From assembly GCA_031409275.1 (NCBI GenBank), contig JANNXA010000006.1, positions 1 through 21,076 of the forward strand: 21,076 bases of DNA, in the 5' to 3' direction. This document shows positions 1-20,302 of this stretch, piece by piece; the first letter of the stretch is position 1, and each line of letters starts with the position of its first letter. Below the pieces are notes generated by a model that saw only the letters and a list, made by a program, of their open reading frames with translations, did not search any database and was not told the origin of the DNA. The stretch comes from Planctomycetota bacterium. Its GTDB lineage: Bacteria; Planctomycetota; B15-G4; SIAN01. Both the position numbers and the translations under genes were made by a program.

Positions 1-567
1 CGCCTCGACCGTGCCGCGTTCGAGTTCCAGCTGATAGGCACCTTCGCGGGTGCGATCGCCGTGTCCCGGGGCCACCCGCAACCGCGTCTGCTCCGACAAC
101 TCGAGCCAGCCGACGTCGCCGACGCGCACGCGCGCGCTCGCTCCGTCACCGCAGACGATGCGGTCGCCGACGCTCAGCGTTTCGGCCGCCGCCTCCGTCG
201 AGCGCTCGCCCGATTCGATGCGCACCCCGCCCTCATGGCGCGCGATCGCGACATCGACGGGGACCGCCGTCGATGGCGTGGCGCCGCCTTGACCGAGCGA
301 CGGTCCGCGATCGAGCACGCGCCACGTCACCCACGATGCGGCCAGCAGCATCGCGGCGGCCGCCGCGCGCATCGCGAAGCGGCGCCATCGCGCGGGCGAT
401 CGCGGCGCGCGAACCTCGTCGCGATCGTCCTCGCGTTCCAGCGAGTCGACGTCGAGCGGCGCCAGTGCGCGCGCGCGCAGCGGTGCCAGCCGTCGTTCGA
501 GATCGGCGACTTCCAGCTCGGGTGTCGCCGTCGGGTCGAAGAGATAGTCGTCGCGCGGCTCGCTCAT
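1..567 (-). CDS. FecR-like transmembrane anti-sigma factor (N-terminal part; runs off the window)
   Basis: Absent from the ORF track because it has no stop inside the window. The ATG at 567..565 overlaps the sigma-factor TGA (ATGA). Manual translation: MSEPRDDYLFDPTATPELEVADLERRLAPLR...RWRRFAMRAAAAAMLLAASWVTW (basic residues then a TM helix)...LSVGDRIVCGDGASARVRVGDVGWLELSEQTRLRV...YQLELERGTVEA. The last part matches the FecR beta-sheet pattern. It lies directly downstream of an ECF sigma gene. Confidence 0.85.
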   Translation of the reverse strand, partial: MSEPRDDYLFDPTATPELEVADLERRLAPLRARALAPLDVDSLEREDDRDEVRAPRSPARWRRFAMRAAAAAMLLAASWVTWRVLDRGPSLGQGGATPSTAVPVDVAIARHEGGVRIESGERSTEAAAETLSVGDRIVCGDGASARVRVGDVGWLELSEQTRLRVAPGHGDRTREGAYQLELERGTVEA

Positions 568-1145
568 TGATGCACTCCACCGCGCAGTCGCTCGCGCAAC
601 AACTCCATGCCACGGTGCAGGTTGACGCGCACGGAGCCGTGCGTGAGCCCGGTCGCCGCCGCGATCTCCGGTCCCGAGAGTCCTTCGATGAGCCGCAGCG
701 CCAGCGTCTCGCGGTAGGCCTCCGGCAGCGCACGCAGCGCGCTCAACGCCTCCGCCCCTTCCGCCGCGAGCTGGGCGTGAAGCTCGGCGCCGGGGGCGGC
801 CAGGCTTTCCGGCAACGACTCGCGCGGCATCGCCTTGCGCGCTCGCCCCGCCAACGACCGGCTGATGGCGAAGAGCCAGGCGCCGAAGCGCTCGGGCTCG
901 CGCAACGCCGCGCGCGCACGCCACGCCTGCAGGAAGGTCTCCTGCAGCAGGTCGTCCACTTCACGCAAGGGCGCATGGGCGAGCAGCAGCGCCCGCACCG
1001 CTCGCGCGAAGCGAGCGTGCAGTTGCGCGAAGGCCGTGCGGTCGCCGGCGCAGGCGGCTCGCGCCAGGCCGACCACCGCATCGCCCTCAATGATCGCGGC
1101 GGGCAGCGTCACCGGCGACCGCGGCACGCATCGACTCGAGGTCAT
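564..1145 (-). CDS. ECF-type RNA polymerase sigma-70 factor
   Basis: Region 2: GDRTAFAQLHARF...VDDLLQETFLQAW...FGAWLFAIS. Region 4: ALRALPEAYRETLALRLIEGLSGPEIAAATGLTHGSVRVNLHRGMELLRERL. The start is uncertain (ATG 1145, GTG 1127 or GTG 1112); the track's 1262 start overlaps the upstream gene too deeply. Confidence 0.93.
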   Translation of the reverse strand: MTSSRCVPRSPVTLPAAIIEGDAVVGLARAACAGDRTAFAQLHARFARAVRALLLAHAPLREVDDLLQETFLQAWRARAALREPERFGAWLFAISRSLAGRARKAMPRESLPESLAAPGAELHAQLAAEGAEALSALRALPEAYRETLALRLIEGLSGPEIAAATGLTHGSVRVNLHRGMELLRERLRGGVHQ

Positions 1146-1617
1146 GCTGGCCCACGAAGACTCCGAAGGTGGAAACGAGGTTGCGTTCGAGCAGGGGCGC
1201 GGGTGCGACCATCGCATGGCGAAGGTGCGCGCGCCAGTCCCCGAGCGCACTGCCGCCTTCACCGTGATCGATGTTCGCGGTCTGGAACGCGACCACCGCC
1301 GATTCGAGCACCGAAAGCAGCGGCTCCCAGCTCGTCAGCTGCGCCGCACCGGCCGGCCCCGCTTGCGGCTCACCGCTCGAGTGGATCGCCATCGGCAGCT
1401 CGGCGGCGGTGACCTTCGATTGGCAGTCGACCCCTTCCGCGAATGGCAACGGAGTCGCGTCGGCCACCTCGATCTCGAAGCAGATCAACGGCGCGCCCCG
1501 CGCCGGCGCGACGGTGCCGACCGGCGCTGCCGAGGCGGCGGCCAGTGCGCTTGCGCTGCACGCGAACGAGATCGCGATCCAGCGCAGCGATGGAGAGATG
1601 GGCCTATCCCTCGTCAC
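1087..1617 (-). CDS. Secreted hypothetical protein (~176 aa) in the ECF operon
   Basis: The GTG at 1617..1615 overlaps the upstream TGA (GTGA). It has a signal-peptide-like N-terminus (LRWIAISFACSASALAAASA) and GC-rich third codon positions. Motifs GAPLICFEIEVADATPLPF and HLRHAMVAPAPLLERNL. Its stop overlaps the start region of the sigma gene. Confidence 0.7.
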   Translation of the reverse strand: MTRDRPISPSLRWIAISFACSASALAAASAAPVGTVAPARGAPLICFEIEVADATPLPFAEGVDCQSKVTAAELPMAIHSSGEPQAGPAGAAQLTSWEPLLSVLESAVVAFQTANIDHGEGGSALGDWRAHLRHAMVAPAPLLERNLVSTFGVFVGQHDLESMRAAVAGDAARRDH

Positions 1618-2525
1618 GAGTCGACTTGGCTCACCGAGATCGACAGCGGCGAAAGGACGCCGCGCAGCCGCGTCGCGAGGTTGGCACACGGCTCCTTGGT
1701 CCAGACCATCAGCGTCTCTCCGTCGCCTCCAGGCGACCACGCCAACACCTGCTCGAGCGACGCGATCGCTTCAGCGACCGGTTGCCACTGCGACGCCGCG
1801 AGCGGAGCTGCGAGCGTCACCGTCGCGCGGGCGGCGCTCTCCGGCCACTCGACCAGCCGCGTCGACTCGGCGCGAACTCGGCTCGCGGTCGCGCGTGGCG
1901 ACGCGCTCGCCAGCGCCTTCGCCAGCGTCGCTTCGAGCTCCGTTGCGGTCGGGGGCGGTGCCGCGAACCGGCCACGCGCCTTGCCATCGGCGCCCACTCG
2001 CCACTCGGTCGCGGCCGGCAACGCGGCGGCGAGCTGCAATTCCAGCGCACCGCACGTCGCCTGGTCGAAGCGAGCGTCGCGTGCCAGCAGCTCGATTTCG
2101 AGCTCGACGACGGAGCGGGTCGGCGGGGCGCCCGACGTGAACCCTTCGCCCGCGAACCCCGCCTTCTTCAGCGCCTCGATCACCTCTCGCTCGAGCAGCG
2201 TGGCGCCAGCGGTCATGGAGATCGTCGCCGTCTTGCAGTCGAAGACGAGGCTCGCGATCCCTTTCAGCGTCGACAAGGCCGCACGGACCTTGGGGCCGCC
2301 GCTTCAGCCAACGCCCGGGATCTTCACCGTGTAGGCCGCGCTGGCGCCCGCCTTGACCGCCGGAGCCGCCGGCGCGGCTTGCACCTGCTGCTCATCGGGA
2401 CTGATCGCGCGCGCCTTCGTGCACGCCGACCCCGCGAGGCAACACCCAAGTGCGAGCAGCACGCCCGAGCGAACCCCGGCACGCGTGCCGCGACTCAACT
2501 GCCACTTCGACGACTGGACCTGCAT
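1614..2525 (-). CDS. Candidate exported selenoprotein with an HMA (heavy-metal-associated)-like domain; in-frame TGA at 2306..2304 (codon 74, putative Sec); ~303 aa
   Basis: Track ORFs 2304..2615 and 1614..2276 share one frame. Read through, it gives AYTVKIPGVG-U-SGGPKVRAALSTLKGIASLVFDCKTATISMTAGATLLEREVIEALKKAGF, an HMA-type pattern with the TGA at the first Cys of GMxCxxC. ATG 2525 has GAGGAG upstream; an alternative in-frame ATG is at 2585. The N-terminus is signal/lipoprotein-like (VLLALGCCLAGSAC). A SECIS-like hairpin follows the TGA. Confidence 0.75.
2266..2303 (-). promoter_or_regulatory. Putative bacterial SECIS element
   Basis: mRNA right after the UGA: AGCGGCGGCCC CAAGG U CC GUGC GG CCUUG UCGACGCU. 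The upper stem CAAGG/CCUUG + CC/GG begins after an 11-nt spacer, has a bulged U, and closes a loop starting GU. A lower stem pairs AGCG with CGCU and CGG with UCG. Folded by eye. Confidence 0.65.
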
Positions 2526-2626
2526 CCTCTGCTCCTCGCGCGCCGCGCCCCGATCGGTCGGCCACGAGCGAGCAGGAGGCGTCATCCCCCGAAGTGTTAA
2601 CCACCGCCGCCACACCCAACGGTGCT

Positions 2627-2738: not shown

Positions 2739-5700
2739 TCACGGCACGAGGACGCCGAACCAGCGCAGGCTGTTGGCGGCGCGGCCGGTGACCTGCAGTT
2801 CGACGGAGTGGCCGACCGGGAGGAGTGCGGCGGGGAGCGTCAGCGTCATGATCCCGGTGGCGTCCTCGCTGTTGGCGGCGCGGCACTCGAAGTCGAGCTC
2901 GACGTCGCCATCGGCGGAACGCCAGCGAGCGTCCGTCCGGATCGCCTCGAAACCGAGCCACTCCTTGCCATCGAGCGCGAGCGTGAAGCCGGCTCCCGGT
3001 TGCGAGCAAAGGCCCATCGCCGCCGCGAAGCGCAGGCGCACGCGCGACGCGTCACCCGCCAGCGGCTCCGCCGCGCCCGTCCTCCAGCGCACGCTGCCGG
3101 TGCCGTCGAGCTGCCGGCAGTAGTGCATCGGCACGACGCCGAGCCAGCTCGGCTGCTGGAAGTCATCGAAGCGCGCGAGGAGCCGCGCGAAGCCGTTCAG
3201 CGGGCGAGCCGCGAGTTCAGCGCGCGCCGCCGCGATCTGTTCCGGGTTCATCGTGCCGAGCGCGATCGGTCCGCTCTGCAGCCACGCGATCAGGTCGGCG
3301 AGGTCCTGCGCCGCGAGCCCTTCCTCCAGCCCATCCGGCATCAGCGAGAGCTTCGAGGCCTTCACCTCCTTCACGTCTCGACGTGCCAGCACCCGCTTCA
3401 TGTCGTTCGCCTGCAGCAAGGTGAACCCGCCGCTCGACTCGCCGCGGATCAGGCCGGAGAGGTCGCTGCCGTCGTGCAGCACGACGCGGTAGTTGACGTA
3501 CTCGCCATTCACCGCGGCGTTCGGATCGAGGATCGATTCGAGCAGGCGCGGCGCACTGCGATCGCCGAGCGCGGCGAGGTCGGGACCGACGCCGAAGCCG
3601 GTGCCGCGAAATGAATGGCAGCTCGCGCACAACTTGGCGAAACGCTCACGCCCGCGACCGAGATCCCCTCGCAGCTGCAGCGCTGGCTGGAACTGCGCGA
3701 TCACCTGCGCGCGCTTGGGAGTTCCGGCGGGCGCAAGCAGCTTGCCCACGCGCTCGCGCAGCCCCGCGTCGTCGACGTGCAGCAACTGCTCGCGCGCCGC
3801 CGCATCGAGCAGCGTGCGCGACACGGCGCCCGACTCGAGCGCCGCGACCAGATCGACGCGCCACTCGGCCCGCGACAGCAGCAGCGCCAGCGCCTGGCTG
3901 CACAACTGCGGGAGCATCCGTGGCAACGCCTCGAGCAGCAGACCCTGCAGCGGCAGGTCGGTGCGACGAGCGAAGGCGTCGAGCACCGCGTGACCGACGT
4001 CGACCGGCTGCGTCGGGTCGAGGAATCGGGCGAGAGGGTCGAGCAGGTCGAGGCCGCCTTGGTCGAGCGGCGCGGCGCCGCCCTGCCGGAAGAAGAGTGC
4101 GAGCGCGGCGGTCGCGGTCGGCGCGTCGATCTCGTCACGCTTGAGCGCCTCGACCGCAGCGCCGAGCATCTCGGTCAACCGCTCGTCGAGCGCGAAGCCG
4201 CCCGCTGCGAGCCGGCGCGAATCGTCGCGCGCACACGAGTCGACGAACCAATGCTCGTCCGCCAGCTCGCCGTGGCTCTCCATCCCTTGCAGCAACGGCG
4301 CGACCGCGCGCCAACGCCACACCTCGCTTGCCGCCGCATCGTCGTGGCCGACCAGCGCATCGAGCACATGAAGCTTCTCGTGGTGGGATTCCGGCGGAAG
4401 CGCGCCCGCCGTCGTGACGACGGCATCGAGCGCCTGCTGTTGCGCCGACGTGCGCTCCATCACGGCGAGCAGCGCCTCCAGCAATGCCGCGGCGTGGATC
4501 GGCGCCGCGCTGATGGCCGCCGCGCGGATCCACGGATCGTCGGCGTAGGCAACGATCGCCTCGCCGAGCAGCGTGCCCGCGAGGCGGGTCTTGCACTCGC
4601 CGAGCGCCATCACCGATGCCAGGCGCTCGGCGCGCGTTGGCTCGAACGAGGCGCGCGGTGCGGCGCCGTCGGGCAGACTCGTATCGAGCTCCTTCCAGTT
4701 CGCGGGCGTCCAGACGCTCCATTCCGTCACTGGAACGGGCGGCGCCATCGATCCACCCACGTCGTTGGCAGCGCTCGATTCTTCCGTCAGCGCGACAAGC
4801 CATCGCTCGGCCAGCGGCATGCAGGCGGCACGCACGTCGGGCAGCTGGTTCAGCGCTAGCAGATCGCTCACGTCGTCTTCCGCGAGCCATCCCAGCTGCT
4901 CGAAGCACCACGCCTCCTGCACCTTCGCTGCCGGAGTCCGAGCGCGCTGCTTCGTCGCGAGTTGGGCGGCGGCGCGCGCCCCGAAGGAGTCCGACGCACC
5001 GCGCTCCGACTTCGTCACCTTCGCCAGCAGCTCGCGATGCGCCAGATCGCGGACGACGCCGTTGTCGGCGACCAACGCCTCGCGCAGCTCGCTCACGCCA
5101 GTCGCCGCGAGGTCGGCGACCTTGCGCAGCGGCGCCCCCTTCTTCACGACGCGCCACAGCCGTCCCATCGTCGCACCGGCGCGCACGTCGAGTTGCGCGA
5201 GCTTCGCGGCCGGGATCCAGCGCGGGTGCTCGATCACGAAGCGGTACATGTCGACGATCCACAACGCGCCATCGGGCCCGGTCGTCGCCTGCACGGGCCG
5301 AAACCACGGGTCGCGGCTCGCAAGGAACTCGCGCTGCTGCTCCTCTGGCGCGCGCCGTCCGGTGGCGCAGGAGCCGTCGCGATCGAGCACGGTGCGGCGC
5401 ACGACGTTCGCCACCGGTTCGCAGGTGAAGGCGTTGCCCTGGAACTCCGCGCCAAGCCACGTATCGCGGTAGATCCCGAGCCCGCACGCCGCCGTCACTC
5501 GACTGGCATCGCCGGCATCGTTGAAGCGCTCGAGCACCGTGCTGATCTGGAAGAGGCCGCGCGGATCCGCGTCCGCCAGCACGTTCCAGCGCGGATCGAG
5601 CGGCGCGACGAACGGGTTGCGGCGAAGCACGTGATCGGCGAGCGGGAACTGGAAGAGCAACCAGCTCGAGTCGCAGCCGAACCAGCGGCCGAAGTCATCG

Positions 5701-8540
5701 CGCACGCGACCTTGCTGGCTCGTCCCCTCGATCGCCTCGATCACGCCGCGCGCCGGGTCGATGCGGAAGTCGCGGCCGCGGCAGTCGACGGGCGCGAGCG
5801 CCAGCGGCGCGGCGCCGCCCGAACGCCCGAGCGCCTCGTGCTTGAACCCGGTGATCTCGCCGCCGAACAGCCCGCAACTGCCGTAGATCCAGCCGTCGAG
5901 CCCCCACGAGAGCGAGTTGACGCGCGCCTGGTAGTTCTCCGTCGAGAAGCCGGTGAAGAGCACCTGCCTCACGTCGGCGCGACCGTCGCCGTCGCTGTCT
6001 TTCGCGTAGATGACGTCGGGCGCTGCGCAGATCAACGCGCCGCCCCTCCACGCCATGACTCCGGTCGGGAACGGCAACCCCTCCACGAAGACGCCACTCG
6101 CCTCGTAGCGTCCATCGCCGTCACGATCGCAGAGCCACGTCACGCGGCCACCCGGCGCGTAGTTGCCGTCGAGCCCGGTCGGGTAGTCGTTCATCTCGCA
6201 GACGTAGACGGTGCCGTCGGCCGCGAAGTCGATCGCGACCGGGCTTTGCACTTTCGGTTCGCATGCGACCAGTTCGATGGCGAGATCGTCGCGCGACAGC
6301 TCGAAGTGGCGCTGCGAATCAGCGGCGCTCTTCGCACTCGGAAAGCGCGGATCGTCCTCCACTGCCGCGAAGCCGTCGGGCAGCAGGCGATGGACCGCGG
6401 CCACGAGGAGCGCCTCGACGCCGCTCGCCAACGGGCCGGGCCGCCCGTAGTAGGTCATCGCGCCCCCCGCTTCGTAGCCGCCTTCGCGCAGGATGCGCTC
6501 GCTCGGGATGTAGCACGGCACGTCGTTGCTGTAGGCACTGATCCAGAGACGCTCGCGGTCGAGCTCGCGCTTCAATCGCAGCGAGTAGTCGACCACCACT
6601 TCGCCCGGCAGGTAAAGCTGCGCGAGCGCGTCGCCCCATCGCCACACCTGCACCGAGTAGGGCAGCGCCGTCGGCAGCGTCTCGCCCCGATCCAGCCGCG
6701 CGAGCCACTGCGCCGCATGGAAGCCGATCGCCCCGCCCGCCTTGACGCGAGCCTCCCACTCGGCGCGCGCCGGGAGCGGCGCATACGGCAACTCGAAGCG
6801 CTCGATCGCGACGGTCGGCGCACCGCCGTCGCGCAACAGCGGCACCAACGGCCCTGCCAGCAACCGCTCGACTTCGTCGGCGACGCTCTTGCCGTGGCGT
6901 TGCGCGACCCGCAGGTCGGCGGTCGGGCCATCGAGCGGATTGGAGTCGGCACCGCAGCCGATGACGGTCAACGCCACCGCGTCCGCGTGGGTCGCCTCGA
7001 TCGCTTCCGACGCGTAGCCGGCCCAATCACCGCAATGCTGGTTCACCGCGCCGTTGCAGGTGGTGCAGTGGCAGGCGTAGTTCTGCAGCGTGGCGAGCAA
7101 CGAGCCGTCGGTGCGGAACGCGGCCAGCAGCGGCAGCGAGTGGTCGACCGGCCCGCCGACGTTGCGACGGTTGCGCGCGAAGGTGACGCTTCCCTCGCTC
7201 CAGGCAAGTTGCGCCGGCACGCGCGCCGCGACCGCCGCGAGCGCCGCCTCCTCCATGCGATCGACCAGCCAGGCGCTGTAGCGCTCGATCCGCTGCCACT
7301 GATCGGCGGGGATCGGCCGCCCGAACATGCAGTCGATGCCGCCGTCGAGCACCGGCGTCGTATGGGAGTGGGTGACGCTCAGCGTGAATCGCTCGCGCGC
7401 GAGTCCGACCTTCGCCGCCAGCCGCGTCGCCACGGCATCGGTCATTCGTTGCGGCACCGCCGTGTTGTCGAGCGCAAGCTGTACGGCGAGCTCCGGCCCA
7501 TCGCCGATGGCCAACGCGCGCACGAAGAGCGGCTGCGCCGCGCTCGTCGCTTCCAGCTCGCGCGAGGCGTAGCCGCAGAGGCGGATCGGGAAGTCGGGAG
7601 TCACGTCGACCTTCGCGGCACCGACCGGCACGGTGGGCCGCCAGAGGTCGGCGAGCCCACCCGGCAACGCATGCAGCGCAGCGACTTCGGTGTCGCTCAA
7701 CGCGCGCTCGAACCAGGCGACCTCGTCCATCCAGCCCACGTAGTTGAGCCCCAGCACCACTCGCTGGTCCGGCACGTTCCAGGTCCACGTCTGCGTGCGC
7801 GGCGCCAGCGTCGCAGCGAGCGTTCCGTCGAGGTACATCCGCGCGACGCCATCGGCCGCGCCGCTGTTGAAGCGTTCGAACGCCAGAACCACATGCGTCC
7901 AGCGCTCGCCGAAGAAGTCGTCCGCCGCGACCTGCGCCAGAGACTTCTCCGCGAAGGCGAGCGCCTCCCAAGGCTTGCTCGAGGGGTTCCAGACCGCGTG
8001 GTCGGCGTAGGCGCCCATGCGAAAGTGGCGGAAGTCGGCTCGCTTCTCGAATTCGCAGAAGAGGCCGGCGTCGTTCCAATCCTTCGCGGTGACGGTGATC
8101 GGGTCGCAGAAGCCCTCCGGCAGCTCGCCCTGCGGCGCGGCGCGCAGCCAGAAGGAGAGCGTCCCGCTCCAGTCGCGCGCGCGCCACGGCGTATTGCCCT
8201 CGCCGTGGAAGAAGAGCAGCTCGTCGGTGCGGCGATGGAAGCGCAGCGCCTGCCCGCGCAACGCGCCGCGCCGCTCGCGTGTGACCGCGCCGCTCTCGAC
8301 GAGGCCGGGTTCGCCCACCCGCGGCGGCCCCCAACTCGCTCCGTGGTGGAGACGGCCATCGCCGCGCGCGACGTCGGCGTCGAGCCCCGCATCGAAGGTC
8401 GCCGCGAACGTGAGCGACTCGCGCAACGCCGTGCGGACCGGAGCCGCTTGAGCCGCGGCCCGCTCGCCACGACCTGCGATCACGAGCAACGACGCGAGAG
8501 CTGCCGAGTTGGCGACGCGCAGGGCCTTGGGCCACTTCAT
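2739..8540 (-). CDS. Giant secreted fusion (~1933 aa): LamG-like jelly-roll + neutral/alkaline ceramidase-like domain + PVC-type membrane-bound dehydrogenase beta-propeller + HEAT-like repeats + cytochrome c (CxxCH) + extra C-terminal domain
   Basis: Signal peptide MKWPKALRVANSAALASLLVIAG with GGGAG upstream. LamG-like: GTLSFWL...WTHVVL...MYLDG...YVGWMDEVAWFERALSDTEVAAL. Ceramidase-like: GAAKVDVTP...LCGYASR...THSHTTP...NYACHCT...GEVVVDYSLRLK...YIPSERILREGGYE. TIGR02604-like: ELVACEPKVQSPVAIDF...GLPFPTG...WGLDGWIY...WFRPV...GPDGALWIVDMYR. Heme domain: CASCH at 3615-3629, then VGPDL and SLMPDGLE. Confidence 0.92.
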   Translation of the reverse strand: MKWPKALRVANSAALASLLVIAGRGERAAAQAAPVRTALRESLTFAATFDAGLDADVARGDGRLHHGASWGPPRVGEPGLVESGAVTRERRGALRGQALRFHRRTDELLFFHGEGNTPWRARDWSGTLSFWLRAAPQGELPEGFCDPITVTAKDWNDAGLFCEFEKRADFRHFRMGAYADHAVWNPSSKPWEALAFAEKSLAQVAADDFFGERWTHVVLAFERFNSGAADGVARMYLDGTLAATLAPRTQTWTWNVPDQRVVLGLNYVGWMDEVAWFERALSDTEVAALHALPGGLADLWRPTVPVGAAKVDVTPDFPIRLCGYASRELEATSAAQPLFVRALAIGDGPELAVQLALDNTAVPQRMTDAVATRLAAKVGLARERFTLSVTHSHTTPVLDGGIDCMFGRPIPADQWQRIERYSAWLVDRMEEAALAAVAARVPAQLAWSEGSVTFARNRRNVGGPVDHSLPLLAAFRTDGSLLATLQNYACHCTTCNGAVNQHCGDWAGYASEAIEATHADAVALTVIGCGADSNPLDGPTADLRVAQRHGKSVADEVERLLAGPLVPLLRDGGAPTVAIERFELPYAPLPARAEWEARVKAGGAIGFHAAQWLARLDRGETLPTALPYSVQVWRWGDALAQLYLPGEVVVDYSLRLKRELDRERLWISAYSNDVPCYIPSERILREGGYEAGGAMTYYGRPGPLASGVEALLVAAVHRLLPDGFAAVEDDPRFPSAKSAADSQRHFELSRDDLAIELVACEPKVQSPVAIDFAADGTVYVCEMNDYPTGLDGNYAPGGRVTWLCDRDGDGRYEASGVFVEGLPFPTGVMAWRGGALICAAPDVIYAKDSDGDGRADVRQVLFTGFSTENYQARVNSLSWGLDGWIYGSCGLFGGEITGFKHEALGRSGGAAPLALAPVDCRGRDFRIDPARGVIEAIEGTSQQGRVRDDFGRWFGCDSSWLLFQFPLADHVLRRNPFVAPLDPRWNVLADADPRGLFQISTVLERFNDAGDASRVTAACGLGIYRDTWLGAEFQGNAFTCEPVANVVRRTVLDRDGSCATGRRAPEEQQREFLASRDPWFRPVQATTGPDGALWIVDMYRFVIEHPRWIPAAKLAQLDVRAGATMGRLWRVVKKGAPLRKVADLAATGVSELREALVADNGVVRDLAHRELLAKVTKSERGASDSFGARAAAQLATKQRARTPAAKVQEAWCFEQLGWLAEDDVSDLLALNQLPDVRAACMPLAERWLVALTEESSAANDVGGSMAPPVPVTEWSVWTPANWKELDTSLPDGAAPRASFEPTRAERLASVMALGECKTRLAGTLLGEAIVAYADDPWIRAAAISAAPIHAAALLEALLAVMERTSAQQQALDAVVTTAGALPPESHHEKLHVLDALVGHDDAAASEVWRWRAVAPLLQGMESHGELADEHWFVDSCARDDSRRLAAGGFALDERLTEMLGAAVEALKRDEIDAPTATAALALFFRQGGAAPLDQGGLDLLDPLARFLDPTQPVDVGHAVLDAFARRTDLPLQGLLLEALPRMLPQLCSQALALLLSRAEWRVDLVAALESGAVSRTLLDAAAREQLLHVDDAGLRERVGKLLAPAGTPKRAQVIAQFQPALQLRGDLGRGRERFAKLCASCHSFRGTGFGVGPDLAALGDRSAPRLLESILDPNAAVNGEYVNYRVVLHDGSDLSGLIRGESSGGFTLLQANDMKRVLARRDVKEVKASKLSLMPDGLEEGLAAQDLADLIAWLQSGPIALGTMNPEQIAAARAELAARPLNGFARLLARFDDFQQPSWLGVVPMHYCRQLDGTGSVRWRTGAAEPLAGDASRVRLRFAAAMGLCSQPGAGFTLALDGKEWLGFEAIRTDARWRSADGDVELDFECRAANSEDATGIMTLTLPAALLPVGHSVELQVTGRAANSLRWFGVLVP

Positions 8541-8573
8541 CACGCACTCCCTACGACGCCGATGCGCACGACC

Positions 8574-8603
8574 TTGGACGGCCGAATCGAGGAGGCGTAC
8601 ACT
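8574..8603 (+). promoter_or_regulatory. Candidate sigma-70 promoter for the FHA gene
   Basis: TTGGAC (8574-8579), an 18-nt spacer, then TACACT (8598-8603), in the divergent intergenic region ~75 nt upstream of ATG 8681. Confidence 0.35.
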
Positions 8604-8680
8604 CCCGCCCTCCTGCGAAGGCGTCAACTGTCGTCCCCCGTGAAGTGCTGCGCGCCGCGCCCTGCGCCCCGGAACCTGCG

Positions 8681-9592: not shown

Positions 9593-11545
9593 TCACTTGC
9601 GAAGCATCTTCGCGGAACCGTGTTCACCGAGGCATCGCGCTCGCACGACGATGGAGTGCGTGCCGGGCGGCACGACCACGCCGCACAGATGGCCGAAGGC
9701 CGGCGCGATCGAAACGGCAACGCCATCGAGCTCCGCTTCGAAGAGGCGATGCCAGCGCCCCAGATCGCCCGTGACCCAACGCAGCGGATCGGCCACGCGC
9801 AGATAACTGCCGGCGACGACCAGGAACGCCATTCGATCGACCGCGACCGTCGCTCGAACCTGCGGATCGAAGAGTCGTGACGACGTCGAATCGTTCACGG
9901 CGTCTTCGACCGGTTCGAGCGACCATTCGAGCGTCGATGTCGGCAGGTGATCGCCGAGTCCCTCGACTCGTTGTTCCACGAGCACATGCTCCTGCGGATC
10001 GACGAGTTGCCGCACGCGTTCAAGGAGAGCCTCCTCGAACGCGAGGTCCGCGAACACGTCACCATCGAGCGGCCGCGACACGACCTCCACTCCGCCGGCG
10101 AGGAACACCGGCGGCAAGGGACGACGAAGACCGAGCGGCGCGTCCGTCGCGCGGGCGATGAACCGCTCTCCGTCCCACTCGAACGGAACGCGCGCGGCGC
10201 CCGGCACCTCCTCCAACGGCACCATCGAGAAGTAGCCGGTGGCCGTGCATAGGGCCGCGTCGTTTGGCGGCGGAACGAGCATGGCACGGGTGAGCGCGGG
10301 CTGCAGCGAAAGCACGACGTCGTGCAGGTATGCCGGTGCGTTGATGTAGCGGATGCGATCGAGGTCCTTCAGGGAGGGAGCCGCGGCACGCACGCCCTCC
10401 GCGACCTGGCGTGCTTCTCGATTGGCGCTCGCCAACGCGTCGAGACGCGACTCGGCCTGCGTGAAGAGAATCGCCGCGAGAGCGATGACGCTGCCGGCGC
10501 GGGCCACCACGACGACCCTGCGACTCGGGCGACCCGATCGGCACGCCAGCCGCAAGAGCCCCTCGGGCACGGCCGCCGCGAAGAGCAACGCCGAAAGCGC
10601 GTGGGCGAGCAGCGCGTAGCGATCCGTGTGGCCGACAACGGCGAACGGAAAGCAGGTGGCGACCGTCAGCAAAGCGAGGAATCGACACTGCCGCGTCCGC
10701 CACGCTCCCAGCGCGATGAGGAGCCACGCGATCCACGAGATCCACGGCGCGCCGGTCAGCAGATCACCACCGAGGCCACCCTCGAGGTAGTGAGGGACCA
10801 CGTTGCGCACACATGCCCACAGGGATCGCAGCGAGAGTCGCTCGGAACGGTCAGCCGCAACTCCGCCGACTTCGAGCCAGTGCAGATGGATGAAAACCAG
10901 CAGCGCGACCGGCAGCAGCAGGAGGAGCGCATGTCGGCGACGCACGGCAAGGCTCGGCGGCACCAAGCAGAGCAACGGCGGCAAGAGCGCGAGCGGCCAT
11001 GGAGCCTCGCTGCTGGCCAGGCCCATCACCATCCAAACCAATCCGCGCCACGCGAAGCCCCCCCCCCCCGCGCGCGAAGAGCGGATGAACTCCGTGGCTG
11101 CCAGCAACGTGAATCCAACGCCGAGTGACCACGAGGCGGCGACGGGCCACGCCGCGGTGGTGACATTGGGCGGCGCCAACAAGAAGAGCAGCACCCCACC
11201 CGCAACGGTGCGACGCGGGAGCGCAATCGAGCGCCCGAAGCGGGCCAGCGCGAATGCCGCGAAGGCGAAGGCTGCCAGCGCCAACGCTCGCAGCCCCACG
11301 TCGTTTCCGCCGGCGAGCCGATCGACGCCCGAATGCAGCAGGTGAAACAGCGGGCGCCAGAAGGAGTTGATCACTTCCGACTGCGACGGCAGGAAGAGCT
11401 CGGCGGTGGAGAGCAGTCGTGTCTTTGCGCGGATCGGGTAGCTGTCCAGCAGCGTCGGCTCGAACAGGAAGCGGCCAGGCAACGCAGCGATCGCCACCAC
11501 GACCAGCAGGCCGAGCGAAAGCCGAAAGCGGTTCTGTCGTGTCAT
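9593..11545 (-). CDS. Polytopic membrane protein, GT-C-fold (PMT/ArnT/YfhO-like) glycosyltransferase candidate (~650 aa)
   Basis: ATG 11545 overlaps the helicase TGA (ATGA). A first TM is followed by a loop with LLDSY and FWRPL, then many hydrophobic segments and DRYALL. The C-terminus is YfhO-like: FLVVAGSY...AELDGVAVSIAPAFGHLCGVVVPPGTHSIVV. The family assignment comes from motif resemblance only. Confidence 0.65.
   Translation of the reverse strand: MTRQNRFRLSLGLLVVVAIAALPGRFLFEPTLLDSYPIRAKTRLLSTAELFLPSQSEVINSFWRPLFHLLHSGVDRLAGGNDVGLRALALAAFAFAAFALARFGRSIALPRRTVAGGVLLFLLAPPNVTTAAWPVAASWSLGVGFTLLAATEFIRSSRAGGGGFAWRGLVWMVMGLASSEAPWPLALLPPLLCLVPPSLAVRRRHALLLLLPVALLVFIHLHWLEVGGVAADRSERLSLRSLWACVRNVVPHYLEGGLGGDLLTGAPWISWIAWLLIALGAWRTRQCRFLALLTVATCFPFAVVGHTDRYALLAHALSALLFAAAVPEGLLRLACRSGRPSRRVVVVARAGSVIALAAILFTQAESRLDALASANREARQVAEGVRAAAPSLKDLDRIRYINAPAYLHDVVLSLQPALTRAMLVPPPNDAALCTATGYFSMVPLEEVPGAARVPFEWDGERFIARATDAPLGLRRPLPPVFLAGGVEVVSRPLDGDVFADLAFEEALLERVRQLVDPQEHVLVEQRVEGLGDHLPTSTLEWSLEPVEDAVNDSTSSRLFDPQVRATVAVDRMAFLVVAGSYLRVADPLRWVTGDLGRWHRLFEAELDGVAVSIAPAFGHLCGVVVPPGTHSIVVRARCLGEHGSAKMLRK
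11058..11069 (-). repeat. Homopolymer G12 tract (C12 on +) inside the membrane glycosyltransferase-like CDS
   Basis: The + strand reads gaag-cccccccccccc-gcgcg. On the minus strand it reads GCG GGG GGG GGG GGC (A-G-G-G-G), currently in frame. Confidence 0.9.
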
Positions 11546-14500
11546 CGCGGCGCGGGTCGCACGACATCCTCCGTCAGCTCGCAGCGCCCCGCGGCGGCGA
11601 GGTCGACCAGCGTCGCGCGAAGTAGCGCGCGCGTCTTCGACTGGACCGACCTGAAGCCCAGCAGGCGCGCCGCTGCGGCAGCCACGTCGTCGGCCGCGCC
11701 GCCACCGCCGGCGGCCAGAACGTGGAGCAGCGCGTTGGCACGCTCCTCGGGCGCGATCTGCTCGGCAGGACGGGGCGCCTCTTCTGGCGCGGCCCGGCGC
11801 ACGAGCGTCCACGCCTGCGGATCGATCGCGGCGGACCAGACGAACTCGCCGCGCCGCTGCAGCCGACCCGCGGTCGCCAACGCGGCGAGGCGCGCCTCGA
11901 GCTGCTCCTCGATGGCGCCGCTCATCCGGCTGATGCCGAGGCAGCGAGCGGCTCGCTGCAGCAACGGCTTCTCGTGGAGTGGCGCTTCGGCATCGACGAT
12001 CCGCAGCAGCAACTCCTCCAGACGTAGCGCCGCGCCCGGATCGTCGAGGTCGGCGCGCGTGCCCGCGACGACAACTTCGAACGAGCGGTAGAGCGGCGGC
12101 TCGGCGCCCGCCGGCACGCCCGCAGCAGCAGCGGACACCGTCGACGCGGGCTCCACCACCGGCGGCGCGGGGAGCGGTGCCGACGCGACCACGCTTGCCC
12201 TCGTCGTGGGCGACGCCGATGCGCTCGCCGCGCGCTCCTGCGCCGCCTTCGCCGACTCCGCCTCGTGCTCCGCCTTCTCGACCGATTCACGCGCCTCGCG
12301 CAGCGCAGCCTCGACGCGCTCGATCTCCTGCACGCGCCGCTCGCTCCAGTCGGAGGACCAGATGCGATGGATGCGCCAACCCAGCCCCTCCAGCACCGAC
12401 TGGCGCAAGCGGTCGCGATCGCGCGCGGTCGCACCGGAGTGGTAGGCGGCGCCGTCGCATTCGATGCCAAGCCAATGCGAGCCCGGCCGCTGCGGATCGC
12501 GGATCGCGAGGTCGATGCGGTAGCCCGAACAGCCCACCTGCAAGTCGACGTGATGGCCGCGCTCCTCCAGCGCGCGCGCCACGTCGCGCTCGAGCTCCGA
12601 CTCGCAGGCGGACTCCGCGTCGACGACAACCGCCGCCGCCAGCGCGATCGCTCCGCGCTGCGCGTAGTCGAGGTAGTCGCGCAGATGGCGCACGCCTGGC
12701 GCAGCGCTGCGCGAGAGGTCGATCTCGTCGGCGCGCAGCGAAGAGAAGACCACCAGCCGCTCCCGCGCGCGCGTGATGGCGACGTTCAGCCGCCGCTCGC
12801 CGCCGCGCTTGTTCAGCGGGCCGAAGTTCATCGACAAGCGCCCCTGCGCGTCCTTCCCGTAGGTGATCGAGAAGAGCATCGTGTCGCGCTCGTCGCCCTG
12901 CACGTTCTCCAGGTTCTTGATGAAGAGCGGCTCGCCGCGCGCGCCACCTTCGGCGAACGGCTGCAGTTCCTGCCGTTCGAGCAGCGCGGCGTCGAGCAGG
13001 TCCTCGATCAGCTGCTGCTGTGGCTGGTTGAAGGTGACCACGCCGATCGATTGATCGCGACGCTGCGGATCGGACAGGGCGGCGACGATCCACTCGACGA
13101 TCGCCCGCGCTTCGGCTTCGTTGGTGCGCCGTCCCGCCTTGTCGTAGGTGCCGCCGACGGCGACCAACGAGACGCCGAGTCCTTGCGCGCGGCCAAAAGC
13201 CGCTGGAAAGGTGTGAAGGCGGCTGCCGTAGTAGTGGCGGTTGCTGAAGGCGATGAGGCTCTCGTCGCGACTGCGGTAGTGCCAGCGCAGCGGCAGCGAC
13301 GGCACCCCGGCCGCCTGCGCCTCTTCGAGGATGCTCTCGAGGTCGCGCACGAGCCCACCATCGGGGGCATCCGCCGCGACCTCTTCCTCCTCGTCGTCGG
13401 CCAGCGCCCGCTCGAAGAATGCGGTGGGCGGCAGCTGCTTGTCGTCGCCGACCACGACCACGTGGCGACCGCGGGCCAACGCGCCGATGGCGTCGTGCGT
13501 CGGGATCTGCGACGCCTCATCGAAGATCACCAGGTCGAAGAGCTCGCGCGAAACCGGCAGGTATTGCGCAATCGACTGCGGGCTCATCAGCAGGCACGGC
13601 TTGAGCTGCGCCAGCAGCGTCGGGATCTCGGAGAGGAGCCAGCGCACCGACTTCTGGCGCCGCTTCTTCTTCGCCTCGCGCTGCAGCGCCTCCACTTCCG
13701 ATCCGGAGAAGCCGGCGTCGGCGCGCAGCGTCCGGCGAGCCCCCCACTCGGCGACCACGCGTCGCCCTCCCGCGGCGATCAAGCGCGCATCTTCGACTCG
13801 GAACTGCAGCGCGCGTGCGTGGTGGCGCGAACCGTCGAAGTCGCGCAGCGCGGGTGCGGCGCCGATCGCATGTTCCGTCACCGTCGTGAAGAAGGCGCGC
13901 TCGAACGCGGCGGGTGCGCTGGCAGGCGGAAGTTCATCGCGGCGCACCGCATCGACGATTGGCGCGAGTTCGAGCGCGCGCGCGGCCCCTTCGGCACGCA
14001 CCAGGCGCGCGTGGGCGCGCAGCTCGGGCAATCGCGCGAGCCAGAGCTCGGCGGTCGAGCGCGCGAAGCTGAAGCCGTCGCGGGCGCTCGCGAGCCCGGC
14101 GCTCCACGAAGGCGCGACCGCGATCGCCGTCACCAGCGCCGCCAGCGCCGATTCGAAGCGGGTGAGCGCGCCCTCGAGGGCGGTGGCCGTCGCGTCGGGC
14201 GTCGAACCCAACGCGCGCATCGCCGGCGGCGTCGTGATCCCGGCCGCATTCCACTGCGGCACGAGCGCGCGCCAACGATCGAGGAAGTCGGCGACCTGCT
14301 GCAGCGCCGCGGGCTCTGTCGCGACGCCGCGCGCCGCAGCCCCAACCGTCGCTTCGAGGAACGCCGCTTCATCGGCGAATCGTCGGGCGCGCGCGACCAC
14401 GGCGAGCGCTCCCGCGAGGTCGGCGCGCGTGACCTCGACGGTCGGCGCCTTGCCGCGCAACGCGGGCGTCAACGTCGACCAGGCGCCGCGCAGCTTGAAC

Positions 14501-17500
14501 CAGCGCATCGGCGCGATCGCGTCGCCGTGTTGCGCAAAGTCGCGAGCGAGTGCGGCAACGTCGAGCTCGAAGAGGCGCTCGCTCCAGCGTGGAGCGAGCC
14601 GCTCCCGCTCGGCGCGGTCGGCCAGAAGCTCACCGGCCAGGGCCCGCAGCCGCGCGATCACCTCGCCGAGGTCGCTGCGAGTCGCGCACTCGGCGGCACG
14701 GCCCGGCAGCGGCGCCGCCAGCAGTCGCAGCGTGGCCAGCGCGACACGCGCCGCCGGCAACCCCGGCGGAACGACGACGCCAAGCGCCGCCGCGGCGGCA
14801 TCGAGCGCGCGCTTGCTCGCTTCGAGCTGCGCGAGGAACTCCCGCAACAGCGACTCGCGTTCGCGCGCCTGAAGCGGCGTGTGGTCGACCGCTCCGCACT
14901 GCGCGAACGGGTGGCTCGCCAACGGGCCGCTCATCGCCGCGACGGCGGCCGCGGCGGCCAGTTCGGCGACCGCCGCCCGACGCTCTTCGTAGCCGCGTCG
15001 ATCCACCTCCAGCGGCGCGCGCAGCGGCAAGGGCGGCAGCGTCGCGGCGTCGCGCTCGCGCACCATGCGGCCGAGGCATTCGAAGTGGTTCATCCCCAAC
15101 GGCCCGCGCCGATGGAGCGCGGCCGCGTACTCGTCGAGCTCGCGCATCAGCTTCTCGGCGCGCTCGGCCAGCAGCGGATCGTCCTCGCGTCGGACCACTG
15201 GCGCTTCGTCCAGCGTGCGCGCCAGCTCGCTGATCACCTCGTGCTTGGCCGCCCGCTGCGAATGGAGTTCGAGGCAGGCGCTCGCGAGGCCGGCGCGCCG
15301 CAGACGGTTGGCCACCACTTCGAGCGCGGCACGCTTCTCCGCCACGAACAGCACCCGTTTGCCGGCGGCGATGCAGCCGGCGATGACGTTGGCGATCGTC
15401 TGCGACTTGCCAGTGCCAGGCGGACCTTGCAGCACGAAGGTGGCGCCGCGCACCGCCGCTTCGATGGCGACGAGCTGGCTCGAATCGGAATCCAGCACGA
15501 CCCGCGCCTTCGTCGGCGGCAGCACCTCGTCGAGGCGACGCGCATCGACGAACGCGGGATCGGGCAGCGCGCCGCCATCGACCCGCTTCACCAGATGGCG
15601 CACCAGCTCGCTTTCGAGCAGCGCTTCGGAGTTCTCCTCGAGGTCGCGCCACAACAGGTACTTGGCGAACGAGAAGAAGCCAAGCCGCGCCTCCTCCACG
15701 ACGGTGAAGCGCGGCACGCGCGAGACCAGCAGCTTGAAGCGCGCCAGCAACTGCGCGACGTCGACGCCGTGGTCATCCTGCGGCAGCGCGCGCAACGGCT
15801 CGGGGTCGATGTCGAGCTCGCTCTTCAACTTCTCGAGCAGCGCATCGTTCAGGCGCGGCTCGTCGTCGCGCAGCTTGAGCGTGAAGCGGCGGGCGAGACC
15901 GCGCCGCTCCAACGTGACCGGCAGCAACAGGATCGGCGCGAGGCGACGCTGCGTGCTGGCGGGCGACTCGAACCACTCGAGGAACCCGAGTGCCAAGAAG
16001 AGCGTCGAGGAGCCGGTCTCCTCGATGTGGGTGCGGTCGTCTCGAAAGAGCGTCAGCAGTCGCGTCTGCAACTCGTCGAGCGGGTGGCGGGTGAGCAGCG
16101 CCCCTTGCGCGAGGAGATCTTGCTGCTCGGCGGCGATCACTTCGGTGGCGCCGCGCGCGGCGGAGAGCTCCGCGGCGCGCGGATCGGCGGCCGCAAGCAC
16201 GCTCTTCGGCGCGAAGTCGAACGTGCCACCGTTTGCCAGATGGTCCTCGATCGCGGCCAGCGAGCCCGCTTCGAGCACGACGCAGCGCTTGCTGTCGCGC
16301 CAGTGGATCAGCCGGTTGCGCAGCGACAGGTCGAGGAGCTGCTGCTTCCATTGCGTGAGGCGATCGGTGAGCGGCTTGTGGAGCGGCAACGCGCCATCCG
16401 CTTGCGTCACGCCCGGCGTCGCGCGCTCCTCCGCCGCGGTGGAGGCGTCGTGGGGCGCGAGCACGGCGCTGCCCGGCGTCGGCAGCGGCACGATGCCGGC
16501 ACCGCGCGCCGCCTTCACGTCGACCACCTTCTGGAAACGCTCCGGCGCGTCGAGCAGCGCGTTCGCCGCGGCGACCGCCGCATCGAAATCTCCGCCGCTG
16601 ACCAGCACCGTCGGATCGATCCAGAGCAGATCGCCCACTTCGACCAGCTTCTTCACCGTCGCGAGGTGGTCGATCGTGACGCACGGAAATTGATCGGCGA
16701 TGCGCCACACGCCGACGACCGCGTGCCCCTCCACTAGCATCAGCAGCGGATGAAGACCTGCCTGTTCGAGCATGGCCGCCACCAGCAGCGAGAGCTCGAT
16801 GCAGTTGCCCATGCGATGGGCGAGGAGCTGCTGCGGCAGTCGCAGCTTCTGCCCCTGCTTCTCGAAACTCGCCGGCAGCGCGTGGTAGGTGAGCTGCTGC
16901 GCGGGCAACGTCTCGGCCAGCGCGCGCACGACCGCATCGACCCGTTCGCGCCCGCCGCGCGGGTAGCCGGGGAACGACGGATCGCCGGTCGCCGCCCGCA
17001 GCCGGTCGCGGGCCGCGGCCAGCAGCTCGGCGACGGCGGGGTCGTTGGGCAGGACGAACGCGGCGAGCAGTTCATCCGCCAGCGAGCGCGTCCATTCGTT
17101 CCACGCCAGGATCTCGAGCGGGAGTCGCTGCCGTGCGAGGATCGCGAGTCCGAGACGCAACTCGACATGGAGCGCGCCGCTCGCCCGCTCCAGCAACGTC
17201 GCCAGGCGCGGGCGATCGAGCGCGACGTCGGGCGCGTTCAGCGTGTACGTCGCGCCGGGCTCGAGACGCGGCAGCGCGAATCGAGCGGGCGGGCCGAAGT
17301 CGGGGCCGACCTGCAGGCGCAACTCGAGCCCTTCGAGCGCCTGCGCGCCGCGGTTGGTGATCGCAACCGATTCGACCAGCGGCACGCCGTTTCGCTCGGC
17401 AGCGAACTGCAAGCGCGTGGCGTGGCGCACCTCGAGCTCGACCCGCGGTGCGACGTGGTCCGGTGCCGCGGGCTTCGCCTCCTCGCCGCGATCGCTCGCC

Positions 17501-17940: not shown

Positions 17941-19113
17941 TCAGCGACGCGCGAGTTCGCGGCGCCACAACCCGGCCAGCGCATCGGCGGCGTCGCGCCA
18001 CGTCCACGGATCGGGCACCACCAACGGCACCCGTTGCGCCGGCGCTTGCGTCGTCGCGGCGAGCGTCGCCATCGCCGCGGCCCACGCCCGCGGCTCGACC
18101 GCTGGCCGGACCAGCGCCGCCACGGTGGCCTTCGCGGCGGCGGCGGCGTCGATGGACGGCAGCACCGCGAACGGCGGCAGCGGTCGCACGATCACCGGAA
18201 GGCCCATGGCCATCGCCTCGTAGATCGGCAAGCCGAACCCTTCGTAACGCGTCGGGAAGAGCATCGCGACCGCGTGTTGCAGCAACGTCGCGAGCTCGCC
18301 TTCGCTGGCGCGACCGACGAATCGAACCTGATCGGCGATGCGCAGCGCGGCGGCGCGCGCCTGCCACGTCGCCAGGTCGCCACCGCCGACGATCACCAGC
18401 GGCAACGACGAAGCGGGCCCACCGGCGGCCTTCAGCTCGGCCATCGCTTCGAGCGCCAGCTCGATTCCCTTCCGCGGTTCGAGGTGGCCCACCGCCACGA
18501 AAAAGCGGCCGCTCTGCAGCGCGTGGCGCTGCAGCCACTCACCAGCGGAGGCGGGATCGAGCGGCGTCGGAGTCGCGACGTTGGCGTTCGCGATGCAAAG
18601 GACGCGATCGGGCGGCAACTCCAGCACTTGCGCCAGTCGCGTTGCCGCCGGCGGCGACACCGTCACGACCCCCGCCCAGTGGCGCGCCTGGCGCGGGATC
18701 CAGTGGCGCGCGGCGACGTAGCGCGGCAGCCAACGCAGCAGCGAGGCGTTCGTGGCGGTGCGCGGCTCGGCCCAGCGCGCGTCGTGGACGGTCACCAGCG
18801 CCGGTACGCCGGACGGGCCGCACGGCGGCACCGTCTCCGAATGCCACAAACGCGCGCGTGCCGCGAGACCCGTCGCAGCGCCGCCGCCGCGAAGGCGCTG
18901 CAAGGAGCGGCGCCACGGCCCGCCCGCCGGTGCCACCTCTTCGATCTCGACACCACCCACCGCCAGCCCATCGAGCAGCTTGCTGCCGCGGGCGATTCGC
19001 ACACCGAGCGGTGGCGCCTCGTCGACCGCGCGCCACTCGCCGAGCCACCCTCGCAGCCGTGTGCGCGCGCCGCTGGCGAAGTCAGGCATCCCGGAGGCGT
19101 CGACCACGATCAT
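17941..19113 (-). CDS. Glycosyltransferase family 4 (GT-B fold), ~390 aa
   Basis: ATG 19113 overlaps the upstream TGA (ATGA). Motifs: MIVVDAS, LVTVHD, VVTVS, VGHLEPRKGI, FPTRYEGFGLPIYEAMAMGLPV. Confidence 0.93.
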   Translation of the reverse strand: MIVVDASGMPDFASGARTRLRGWLGEWRAVDEAPPLGVRIARGSKLLDGLAVGGVEIEEVAPAGGPWRRSLQRLRGGGAATGLAARARLWHSETVPPCGPSGVPALVTVHDARWAEPRTATNASLLRWLPRYVAARHWIPRQARHWAGVVTVSPPAATRLAQVLELPPDRVLCIANANVATPTPLDPASAGEWLQRHALQSGRFFVAVGHLEPRKGIELALEAMAELKAAGGPASSLPLVIVGGGDLATWQARAAALRIADQVRFVGRASEGELATLLQHAVAMLFPTRYEGFGLPIYEAMAMGLPVIVRPLPPFAVLPSIDAAAAAKATVAALVRPAVEPRAWAAAMATLAATTQAPAQRVPLVVPDPWTWRDAADALAGLWRRELARR

Positions 19114-20219: not shown

Positions 20220-20228
20220 GAGGGGCGG

Positions 20229-20234
20229 ATGGTA
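20229..20234 (-). promoter_or_regulatory. Candidate -10 element (TACCAT); near-leaderless GT4 transcript
   Basis: TACCAT lies 9 nt upstream of ATG 20219, and there is no Shine-Dalgarno sequence in between. Confidence 0.4.
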
Positions 20235-20302
20235 GCTCGCGGTCGAAGTTCGGCCCGCCGTCCGATCCGCAGACTCTTCCGATGAATGTGTCGTCGCGTC
20301 CG

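Follow-up and report, generated by a model that had tools for sequence, protein, structure and literature searches.

What does a selenoprotein gene do at the head of an operon for an extracytoplasmic function (ECF) sigma factor: does it sense the signal, gate the response or carry it out? The question is raised by one end of a 21,076-nt stretch of DNA (the window, meaning the whole stretch), which is contig C6 of G000, a Planctomycetota genome of 5.6 Mb and 69% G+C (GenBank GCA_031409275.1, contig JANNXA010000006.1). Here four minus-strand genes encode, in order, a likely selenocysteine (Sec)-containing protein of HMA fold (gene 1), a secreted accessory protein (gene 2), an ECF sigma factor and a FecR-type anti-sigma factor with a transmembrane (TM) helix. 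They are a real and probably co-transcribed unit, a variant ECF/FecR-type system with an uncatalogued selenoprotein as its predicted target. It is moderately probable that the four genes constitute an envelope-stress operon that amplifies itself, with the ECF sigma factor driving the selenoprotein, as its main output, from a TAAC-N17-CTC site.

In this proposal the sigma factor is likely kept inactive by its FecR-type membrane anti-sigma factor and, once freed, is predicted to bind the TAAC-N17-CTC site ahead of gene 1, switching on a likely selenocysteine lipoprotein. The sigma factor would thus be an autoregulated ECF with a small regulon that includes the selenoprotein. In most Planctomycetota loci gene 1 is separate from the sigma/anti-sigma pair, which gene 2 often accompanies, and a motif copy precedes each of the two; in the family of the window the sigma genes sit behind the predicted promoter of the selenoprotein, with no motif copy of their own. 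The selenoprotein would be an output of the system and not its sensor. The parts of the unit on which this proposal draws are as follows.

Predicted ECF-dependent promoter: 2576 to 2602, minus strand; -35 TAAC at 2599-2596, 17-nt spacer, -10 CTC at 2578-2576; the ATG of gene 1 follows about 50 nt on.
Gene 1: 2525 to 1614, minus strand; 303 aa with an in-frame TGA at 2306-2304, a predicted lipoprotein of three tandem HMA-fold domains with one selenocysteine (U74).
Gene 2: GTG 1617 to 1087, minus strand; 176 aa, a secreted accessory protein, TPR-like, that goes with this ECF group; the G000 copy has internal deletions.
ECF sigma gene: 564 to 1112, minus strand; 182 aa from GTG 1112, with an alternative start at ATG 1145; Pfam r2 and r4_2.
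Anti-sigma gene, 5' half: 1 to 567, minus strand; starts at ATG 567 and encodes 365 aa in all, ending at G000:C11:43922.

Codon use is coding-like in all four genes, and the arrangement given by an earlier, sequence-only reading (four same-strand genes with overlapping junctions, in the order Sec-HMA protein, secreted protein, ECF sigma and TM FecR-like anti-sigma) was borne out. The GTGA overlap between genes 1 and 2 at 1617-1614 and the ATGA overlap between sigma and anti-sigma, where the former ends at 564 and the latter starts at ATG 567, were both confirmed. As to the start of the sigma gene, which had been placed near 1087-1145, the overlap with gene 2 stands, and GTG 1112 is a more probable start than ATG 1145, because the related genome G004 keeps this GTG and not the ATG; the overlap then measures 26 nt. 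The claim that the downstream starts are coupled to the true stop at 1614 holds for the start of gene 2 only. The window contig begins inside the anti-sigma gene, and contig C11 of the same genome, which shares a unique 141-nt overlap with it, completes the protein to 365 aa; the gene past its end on C11 lies on the opposite strand. In runs X1 and X2, from which the assembly may itself derive, Logan contigs carry both stretches in one piece across the C6/C11 junction with 0 differences.

The four genes are probably a single operon, because the best promoter-like site of the genome precedes gene 1 and none occurs within the operon. A matrix trained solely on 13 ECF loci of other genomes gave the window site (2602-2574) a score of 21.5, the best in G000, with 17.1 for the next. 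No TAAC is present on the coding strand from 2560 to 1 of the window, and the TAAC motif is likewise absent from the approximately 170 nt before gene 2 or sigma in four other loci where gene 1 and the ECF genes are linked. A generic promoter and terminator scan returned nothing. As to an internal promoter that might drive the sigma genes independently, neither a TAAC site nor a sigma70 consensus was found inside the operon, by searches that do not cover other promoter types.

The motif, in the form TAAC-N17/18-(C/G)TC, was first defined by its presence upstream of 13 of 14 ECF loci that are not linked to gene 1. It recurred at 5/6 and 12/16 held-out ECF loci, the latter with a slightly looser pattern and with one locus shared, which makes 16/21, so that overall this ECF's own locus is preceded by the motif in 29 of 35 cases. 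The same motif stands before 23 of the 33 copies of gene 1 that have at least 280 nt upstream of the UGA, including 18 of the 28 not known to be linked to the ECF genes, against a background of 29 among 3819 G000 genes. Strict-pattern sites number 7 in G005, 5 in G007, 9 in G043, 7 in G422, 5 in G424 and 8 in G426, and in each of these genomes the ECF locus and gene 1 are both among them. For G423 and G015, one of the two sites came up with the strict pattern and the other with a looser one. TAAC/CGTC-type elements have been described for ECF35, ECF120, ECF16 and autoregulated ECFs in PMC7826278, which favors an ECF promoter, and the motif is predicted from its distribution to be one of the autoregulatory type. 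A functional tie between the selenoprotein and the ECF system, as the sequence-only reading had supposed, is therefore upheld by a motif that both share even where the genes lie apart.

A different explanation of these sites is that the neighborhood is incidental: another ECF would read the motif, and one rearrangement would have placed the sigma and anti-sigma genes behind the selenoprotein, where they are now decaying within the genus. Several facts weigh against the proposed regulation and some of them lend this alternative substance. Another sigma factor could read the motif, because several ECF groups use TAAC-type promoters and G000 has 62 sigma70-family hits above the cut-off; many ECFs per genome are thus available for the task. 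Duplicates and closely related genomes enter the motif counts, and the choice of the strict patterns came after sites had been seen. The motif is missing at 10 of the 33 gene 1 copies, that is, in one 8-locus clade and at L123 and L070, and the motif-less copies include those of G045 and G236, both of which possess the anti-sigma factor. Within G422, G424 and G426 the -10 element differs, being CTC at the ECF locus and GTC at gene 1. At L096, the linked locus of G003, sigma has been lost and gene 2 is fused to the anti-sigma, while gene 1 and the motif are kept. Finally, the neighborhoods of gene 1 in the relative loci show no recurrent metal or redox genes. Damage to the locus in the genus also fits the incidental explanation (gene 2 deleted in G000, the loss and fusion in G003, a remnant in G001 and shortened genes in G002), although some of it may be assembly error. 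Opposed to it are the presence of the motif before this ECF's locus across the phylum, in the proportion given above, its rarity genome-wide, and the intact sigma and anti-sigma genes of both G000 and G004, whose sigmas are 87% identical. An incidental neighborhood is judged quite unlikely, and regulation of the selenoprotein by its neighboring ECF sigma is retained as the preferred explanation.

The identification of gene 1 as a selenoprotein gene, made in the sequence-only reading, was corroborated by the conservation of its UGA, by its selenocysteine insertion sequence (SECIS) and by the selA, selB, selC and selD genes of the genome. The relevant positions are these.

Cys35, probable lipidation site: 2421 to 2423, minus strand; after the hydrophobic signal stretch, assigned by pattern only.
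In-frame UGA (Sec74): 2304 to 2306, minus strand; where the HMA metal loop has its first Cys, with no Cys at +3.
Bacterial SECIS-like hairpin: 2274 to 2292, minus strand; 7-bp stem and 5-nt loop, 11 nt past the UGA.
Cys97: 2235 to 2237, minus strand; in the domain 1 turn between beta2 and beta3; predicted to pair with Sec74.
Cys280: 1686 to 1688, minus strand; in a conserved E[PR]C motif of domain 3, present in 30 of 31 full-length relatives.

The relatives of gene 1 come from Planctomycetota assemblies. A UGA occupies codon 74 in 35/35 relative loci, duplicates included, in a search whose pattern left the UGA codon out and required Cys97, and the sequence is coding-like both before and after this codon. 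The SECIS hairpin has 95.8% of its cells paired across 24 sequences, a value reached by 0/500 shuffles, although relatedness inflates this contrast; it covaries, two of its pairs showing double-sided changes, and CGT, a rare Arg codon, is kept in 24/24 sequences, compared with 8% use in the genome. An Rfam scan gave no match. The Sec machinery of G000 comprises a tRNA-Sec (selC), selA, selB and a selD that itself contains a UGA. Reading UGA74 as a true stop or a sequencing error was ruled out by the 35/35 conservation, the SECIS pairing and the matching X1/X2 contigs. By each of the tests applied, gene 1 is thus likely a selenoprotein gene, with the insertion of Sec itself deduced from the sequence. 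Among the relatives and the protein databases searched, the three-domain protein was not encountered with Cys in place of Sec, and the databases contain only the post-UGA part of the gene 1 product. No entry matching gene 1 was seen among the 119 selenoprotein families in Table 1 of a 2026 review (PMC13188914), and the family is taken to be uncatalogued.

The model of the gene 1 product (predicted local distance difference test, pLDDT, 79) displays a signal stretch followed by three ferredoxin-like beta-alpha-beta-beta-alpha-beta domains, and its Foldseek matches include CopA, ATP7B and MerP. Pfam HMA (PF00403) detects the window protein at E 7e-5, with 23.5 bits against a cut-off of 24.8, and is passed by two relatives with 44.5 and 34.3 bits when Cys is read at the UGA; in an NCBIfam scan no model passes, and the MerP model TIGR02052 stays far under its cut-off. 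Sec74 aligns with the first Cys of the Pfam HMA loop by distant similarity only. A lipobox-like motif occurs in 26 of 35 relatives. The protein resembles the MerP and CopZ chaperones and the known Sec-HMA proteins in its HMA fold, its export signal and a Sec in place of the first metal-loop Cys; among the latter, Table 1 of PMC13188914 lists a putative mercuric transport protein and a cation ATPase E1-E2 with UxxC. It differs from all of these in its three tandem domains, its predicted lipid anchor, the lack of the second Cys of CxxC, and the conserved Cys97 and Cys280. In the window the metal loop reads U-S-G-G, and no Cys is found at +3 anywhere in the family, which accordingly falls outside the CxxC/UxxC definition.

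Cys97 is invariant in alignment A1, as the search pattern demanded, and it also occurs in the multi-Sec relatives L071 and L072. It is predicted to lie near Sec74 and to pair with it, on the basis of the fold topology and by comparison with MerP. The gene 1 product most likely acts in the periplasm, through the Sec74-Cys97 pair, as a thiol-redox or soft-metal scavenger, and the thiol-redox role is somewhat favored because the canonical CxxC is gone.

Distant relatives of gene 1 were also noted. L071:1504-2226 (minus strand, G159) and L072:1504-1980 (plus strand, G381) are multi-domain HMA genes that contain as many as three in-frame TGA codons (in L071, one in each domain), and both keep the turn Cys of domain 1. 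The loci L073-L093, spread over many Planctomycetota genomes, hold HMA genes, some in tandem, with TGA in GMT-U-xx-C or GAT-U-AT-U loops, and are probably further unannotated selenoproteins. The promoter motif precedes none of the 10 distant Sec-HMA loci recognized by pattern among 23 (0/10).

How general is the linkage between gene 1 and the ECF genes? The gene 1 loci examined numbered 36 (the window, 34 from the relative-locus searches and L070), of which 2 were duplicates and 8 had too little downstream DNA, leaving 26 informative. The ECF module follows gene 1 in six of these: the window, L094 (G004), L096 (G003), L106, L113 and L115. In L106 gene 2 sits at the contig end, and in L113 and L115 sigma directly follows gene 1 with no gene 2. 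All six belong to one 14-row clade (97/95) of the 34-row tree, which requires two changes, and in G005 and G007, from the same family as the window, gene 1 and the ECF module are on separate contigs. Linkage as a general trait, to be expected if the neighborhood proposed in the sequence-only reading were conserved, is consequently confined to 6/26 loci of one clade. Nor is the coupled junction at 1614 a conserved device, since the stop of gene 1 and the start of the following gene overlap in two of the six linked loci and lie 33-87 nt apart in the other four.

The distribution of the two components in 401 sampled genomes of the phylum points the same way. The genomes of the sample are incomplete and related to one another, six candidates were scored per genome, and the counts represent tendencies: the anti-sigma factor was detected in 62 genomes and the three-domain gene 1 in 6 (E below 1e-50). 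All 6 also have the anti-sigma factor, and 56 of the 62 anti-sigma genomes have no three-domain gene 1 match. The notion of gene 1 as a required sensor does not survive these figures and the target-type motif that gene 1 carries; rather, gene 1 is most likely the main target, because the motif precedes unlinked gene 1 and ECF loci alike and because most anti-sigma genomes do without it.

The linked arrangement also bears on the idea that a failure to decode the UGA under selenium limitation could be polar on the sigma module. If selenium gating were the selected purpose of the gene order, ribosomes lacking selenium supply would stop at UGA74 and leave about 690 nt untranslated, transcription would end early and the sigma feedback could not build. 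The sole predicted promoter is upstream of the UGA, 688 nt separate the UGA from the true stop of gene 1, and the genome has a probable Rho (485.6 bits, below the cut-off of 509). A precedent exists in the fdhF-Sec gene of Treponema primitia where, according to PMC3892789, the transcript is truncated at the Sec codon in a selenium-dependent manner; as here, an in-frame UGA and a SECIS occur early in the transcript and low selenium could cut the downstream mRNA. The effect was measured there within one enzyme gene, whereas in the window it is a regulator that would be affected. Selection for gating is made very improbable by the restricted linkage, with its two tree changes and the unlinked G005 and G007, by the junction overlap in a minority of linked loci, and by the consideration that sigma and anti-sigma would drop together, which could permit a response but not signal one. 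Because the two fall together and a minority of loci is concerned, selenium-dependent polarity is treated as a possible side effect that the layout allows. The linked lineages are a natural experiment on the question of whether a transcription factor can be gated by Sec decoding.

Turning to the regulators, Pfam regions 2 and 4 are detected in the sigma factor. The anti-sigma factor comprises a short cytoplasmic helix, an Ala-rich membrane helix at about residues 64-80, a FecR-type beta domain and a helical C-terminal domain. Its model matches PupR (6ovk) at E 2e-6, and a PDB sequence search with the anti-sigma profile gave designed-protein matches only. With Pfam FecR the window protein scores 20.3 bits against a cut-off of 24, which four relatives pass. 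The pair is like the FecI/FecR systems (FecIR-FecA of E. coli, PupIR and FoxIR of Pseudomonas) in that an ECF sigma is followed by a one-helix anti-sigma with a periplasmic PupR/FecR-like beta domain. In contrast to those systems, no TonB-dependent transducer adjoins it in the lists of open reading frames (ORFs) of the related loci, inspected by eye, its anti-sigma has the helical C-terminal domain and Gly-Cys in place of Gly-Thr, and it combines a secreted TPR-like accessory gene, a motif of autoregulatory type and a selenoprotein as predicted target. With SigF-NrsF (ECF16), a metal and oxidative stress ECF, it has in common the TAAC-type -35, the (here predicted) autoregulation and a periplasmic Cys in the anti-sigma (PMC7826278), but NrsF is a six-helix DUF1109 protein and the anti-sigma of the window has one membrane helix and a FecR domain. 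The ECF group descriptions of PMC7826278 that were compared (ECF46, 231, 241, 267, 277 and others) gave no fit, and in the literature covered (titles and the beginnings of abstracts, with most subscription papers outside coverage) no selenoprotein in an ECF regulon was described.

The Gly-Cys pair of the beta domain, Gly211-Cys212, is invariant in 32/32 anti-sigma factors and aligns without gaps with Gly181-Thr182 of E. coli FecR, although weakly (E 0.21). That Gly-Thr bond is the self-cleavage site of FecR-type proteins, as stated in PMC9249621, PMC7186176 and PMC11637429. A Cys in its place hints that this well-studied type of anti-sigma factor may exist in a thiol-sensitive form.

Such a site invites an explanation in which the selenoprotein takes part in signaling: induced by sigma, it would act back on the anti-sigma factor, for instance by reducing or de-metallating Cys212, and close a redox or metal feedback loop, which comes near to the sensor idea of the sequence-only reading. 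Besides the invariance and weak alignment of Gly-Cys, this is consistent with the predicted periplasmic orientation of both the gene 1 product and the anti-sigma domain, with the co-occurrence of gene 1 and the anti-sigma factor, with gene 1 standing directly before sigma in L113 and L115 without gene 2, and with the erosion of gene 2 in the window. The many anti-sigma genomes that have no gene 1 match, even allowing for incomplete genomes, argue that the selenoprotein is not a required sensor, and the usual accessory gene is gene 2; feedback of this kind is regarded as unlikely. Feedback and gating might also be combined in a selenium-licensed stress switch, in which amplification needs selenium and the selenoprotein then acts on the Gly-Cys site of the anti-sigma and resets it. 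This combination is distinctly improbable, but if true, selenocysteine would serve as both a translational gate and a redox feedback partner. For the present, the selenoprotein as an output of the ECF sigma factor remains the preferred explanation.

The family of gene 2, with 333 representatives, consists of secreted helical proteins that resemble TPR proteins; Atlas returned unnamed clusters and a TPR lead only. That it is a spurious frame was rejected on the strength of this family membership. The window copy is 176 aa long versus about 240-280 in the family and misses two internal blocks (about 22 and 64 residues), which correspond to the conserved core with its invariant Arg pair; an assembly error is unsupported as the cause of these deletions, because the X1/X2 contigs, possibly the source, match exactly. 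Gene 2 precedes sigma in 13/19 ECF loci and in 1 clear case among 16 more distant ones, and is on this account held to be optional. It would act as an optional periplasmic co-regulator and is probably weakened or dead in the window.

Alterations of the locus are seen elsewhere as well. At L018:5951-7386 (minus strand, G003) an in-frame fusion joins gene 2 with the periplasmic half of the anti-sigma, and sigma and the membrane helix are missing; G001 retains an anti-sigma remnant only, and G002 has shortened genes. The damage in these three genomes may be due to decay or to assembly error.

A wider regulon was sought in 15 genomes, where, past the ECF locus and gene 1, only weak recurrent candidates emerged. 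In the three related genomes G422, G424 and G426 (L258:1560-1925, L272:1560-1922 and L302) a secreted 121-aa His-rich protein is encoded 30-32 nt past the motif; it has no Pfam match and an Atlas CopC lead below threshold (0.86), and it is the sole metal hint in the predicted regulon. Two related esterase-like genes, 32% identical, follow motif sites at G000:C11:209-940 (minus strand) and L276:1651-2871 (G043) and are a possible further regulon member. Genes with the look of DNA-alkylation-repair and glyoxalase-type proteins recur near gene 1 in several lineages (flanks of L097, L100, L102, L107/L108 and L118), and one such gene of G000, G000:C7:124513-125292, comes after a weak motif site.

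With these assignments, an uncatalogued selenoprotein family gains a predicted regulator and promoter, and a widespread, unclassified ECF/FecR-type system (62/401 sampled Planctomycetota genomes) gains a predicted promoter and target. The predictions are compact enough for a surrogate host, as they involve four genes and one 27-nt site.

The remainder of the window lies upstream of the operon. Between the promoter and the next gene is one further feature:

Dispersed inverted repeat, 37-nt arms: 2628 to 2739, no strand; separates the promoter from the large upstream gene and is not peculiar to this system.

It is like a repetitive extragenic palindrome (REP): BLAST with one arm gives about 34 hits in G000, and a similar pair is present in the intergenic region of G004. 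The large gene (2739-8627, minus strand) encodes a protein of about 1940 aa with LamG, ceramidase-like, DUF7133 and cytochrome c domains; this protein is encoded directly upstream of gene 1 in G000, G003, G004 and L106, while in G001 its gene precedes the remnant of the anti-sigma gene. Farther away, by eye from the ORF list, are a 2116-aa protein with the look of a helicase/nuclease fusion (11542-17892, minus strand) and two glycosyltransferase-like genes (17941-20330, minus strand).

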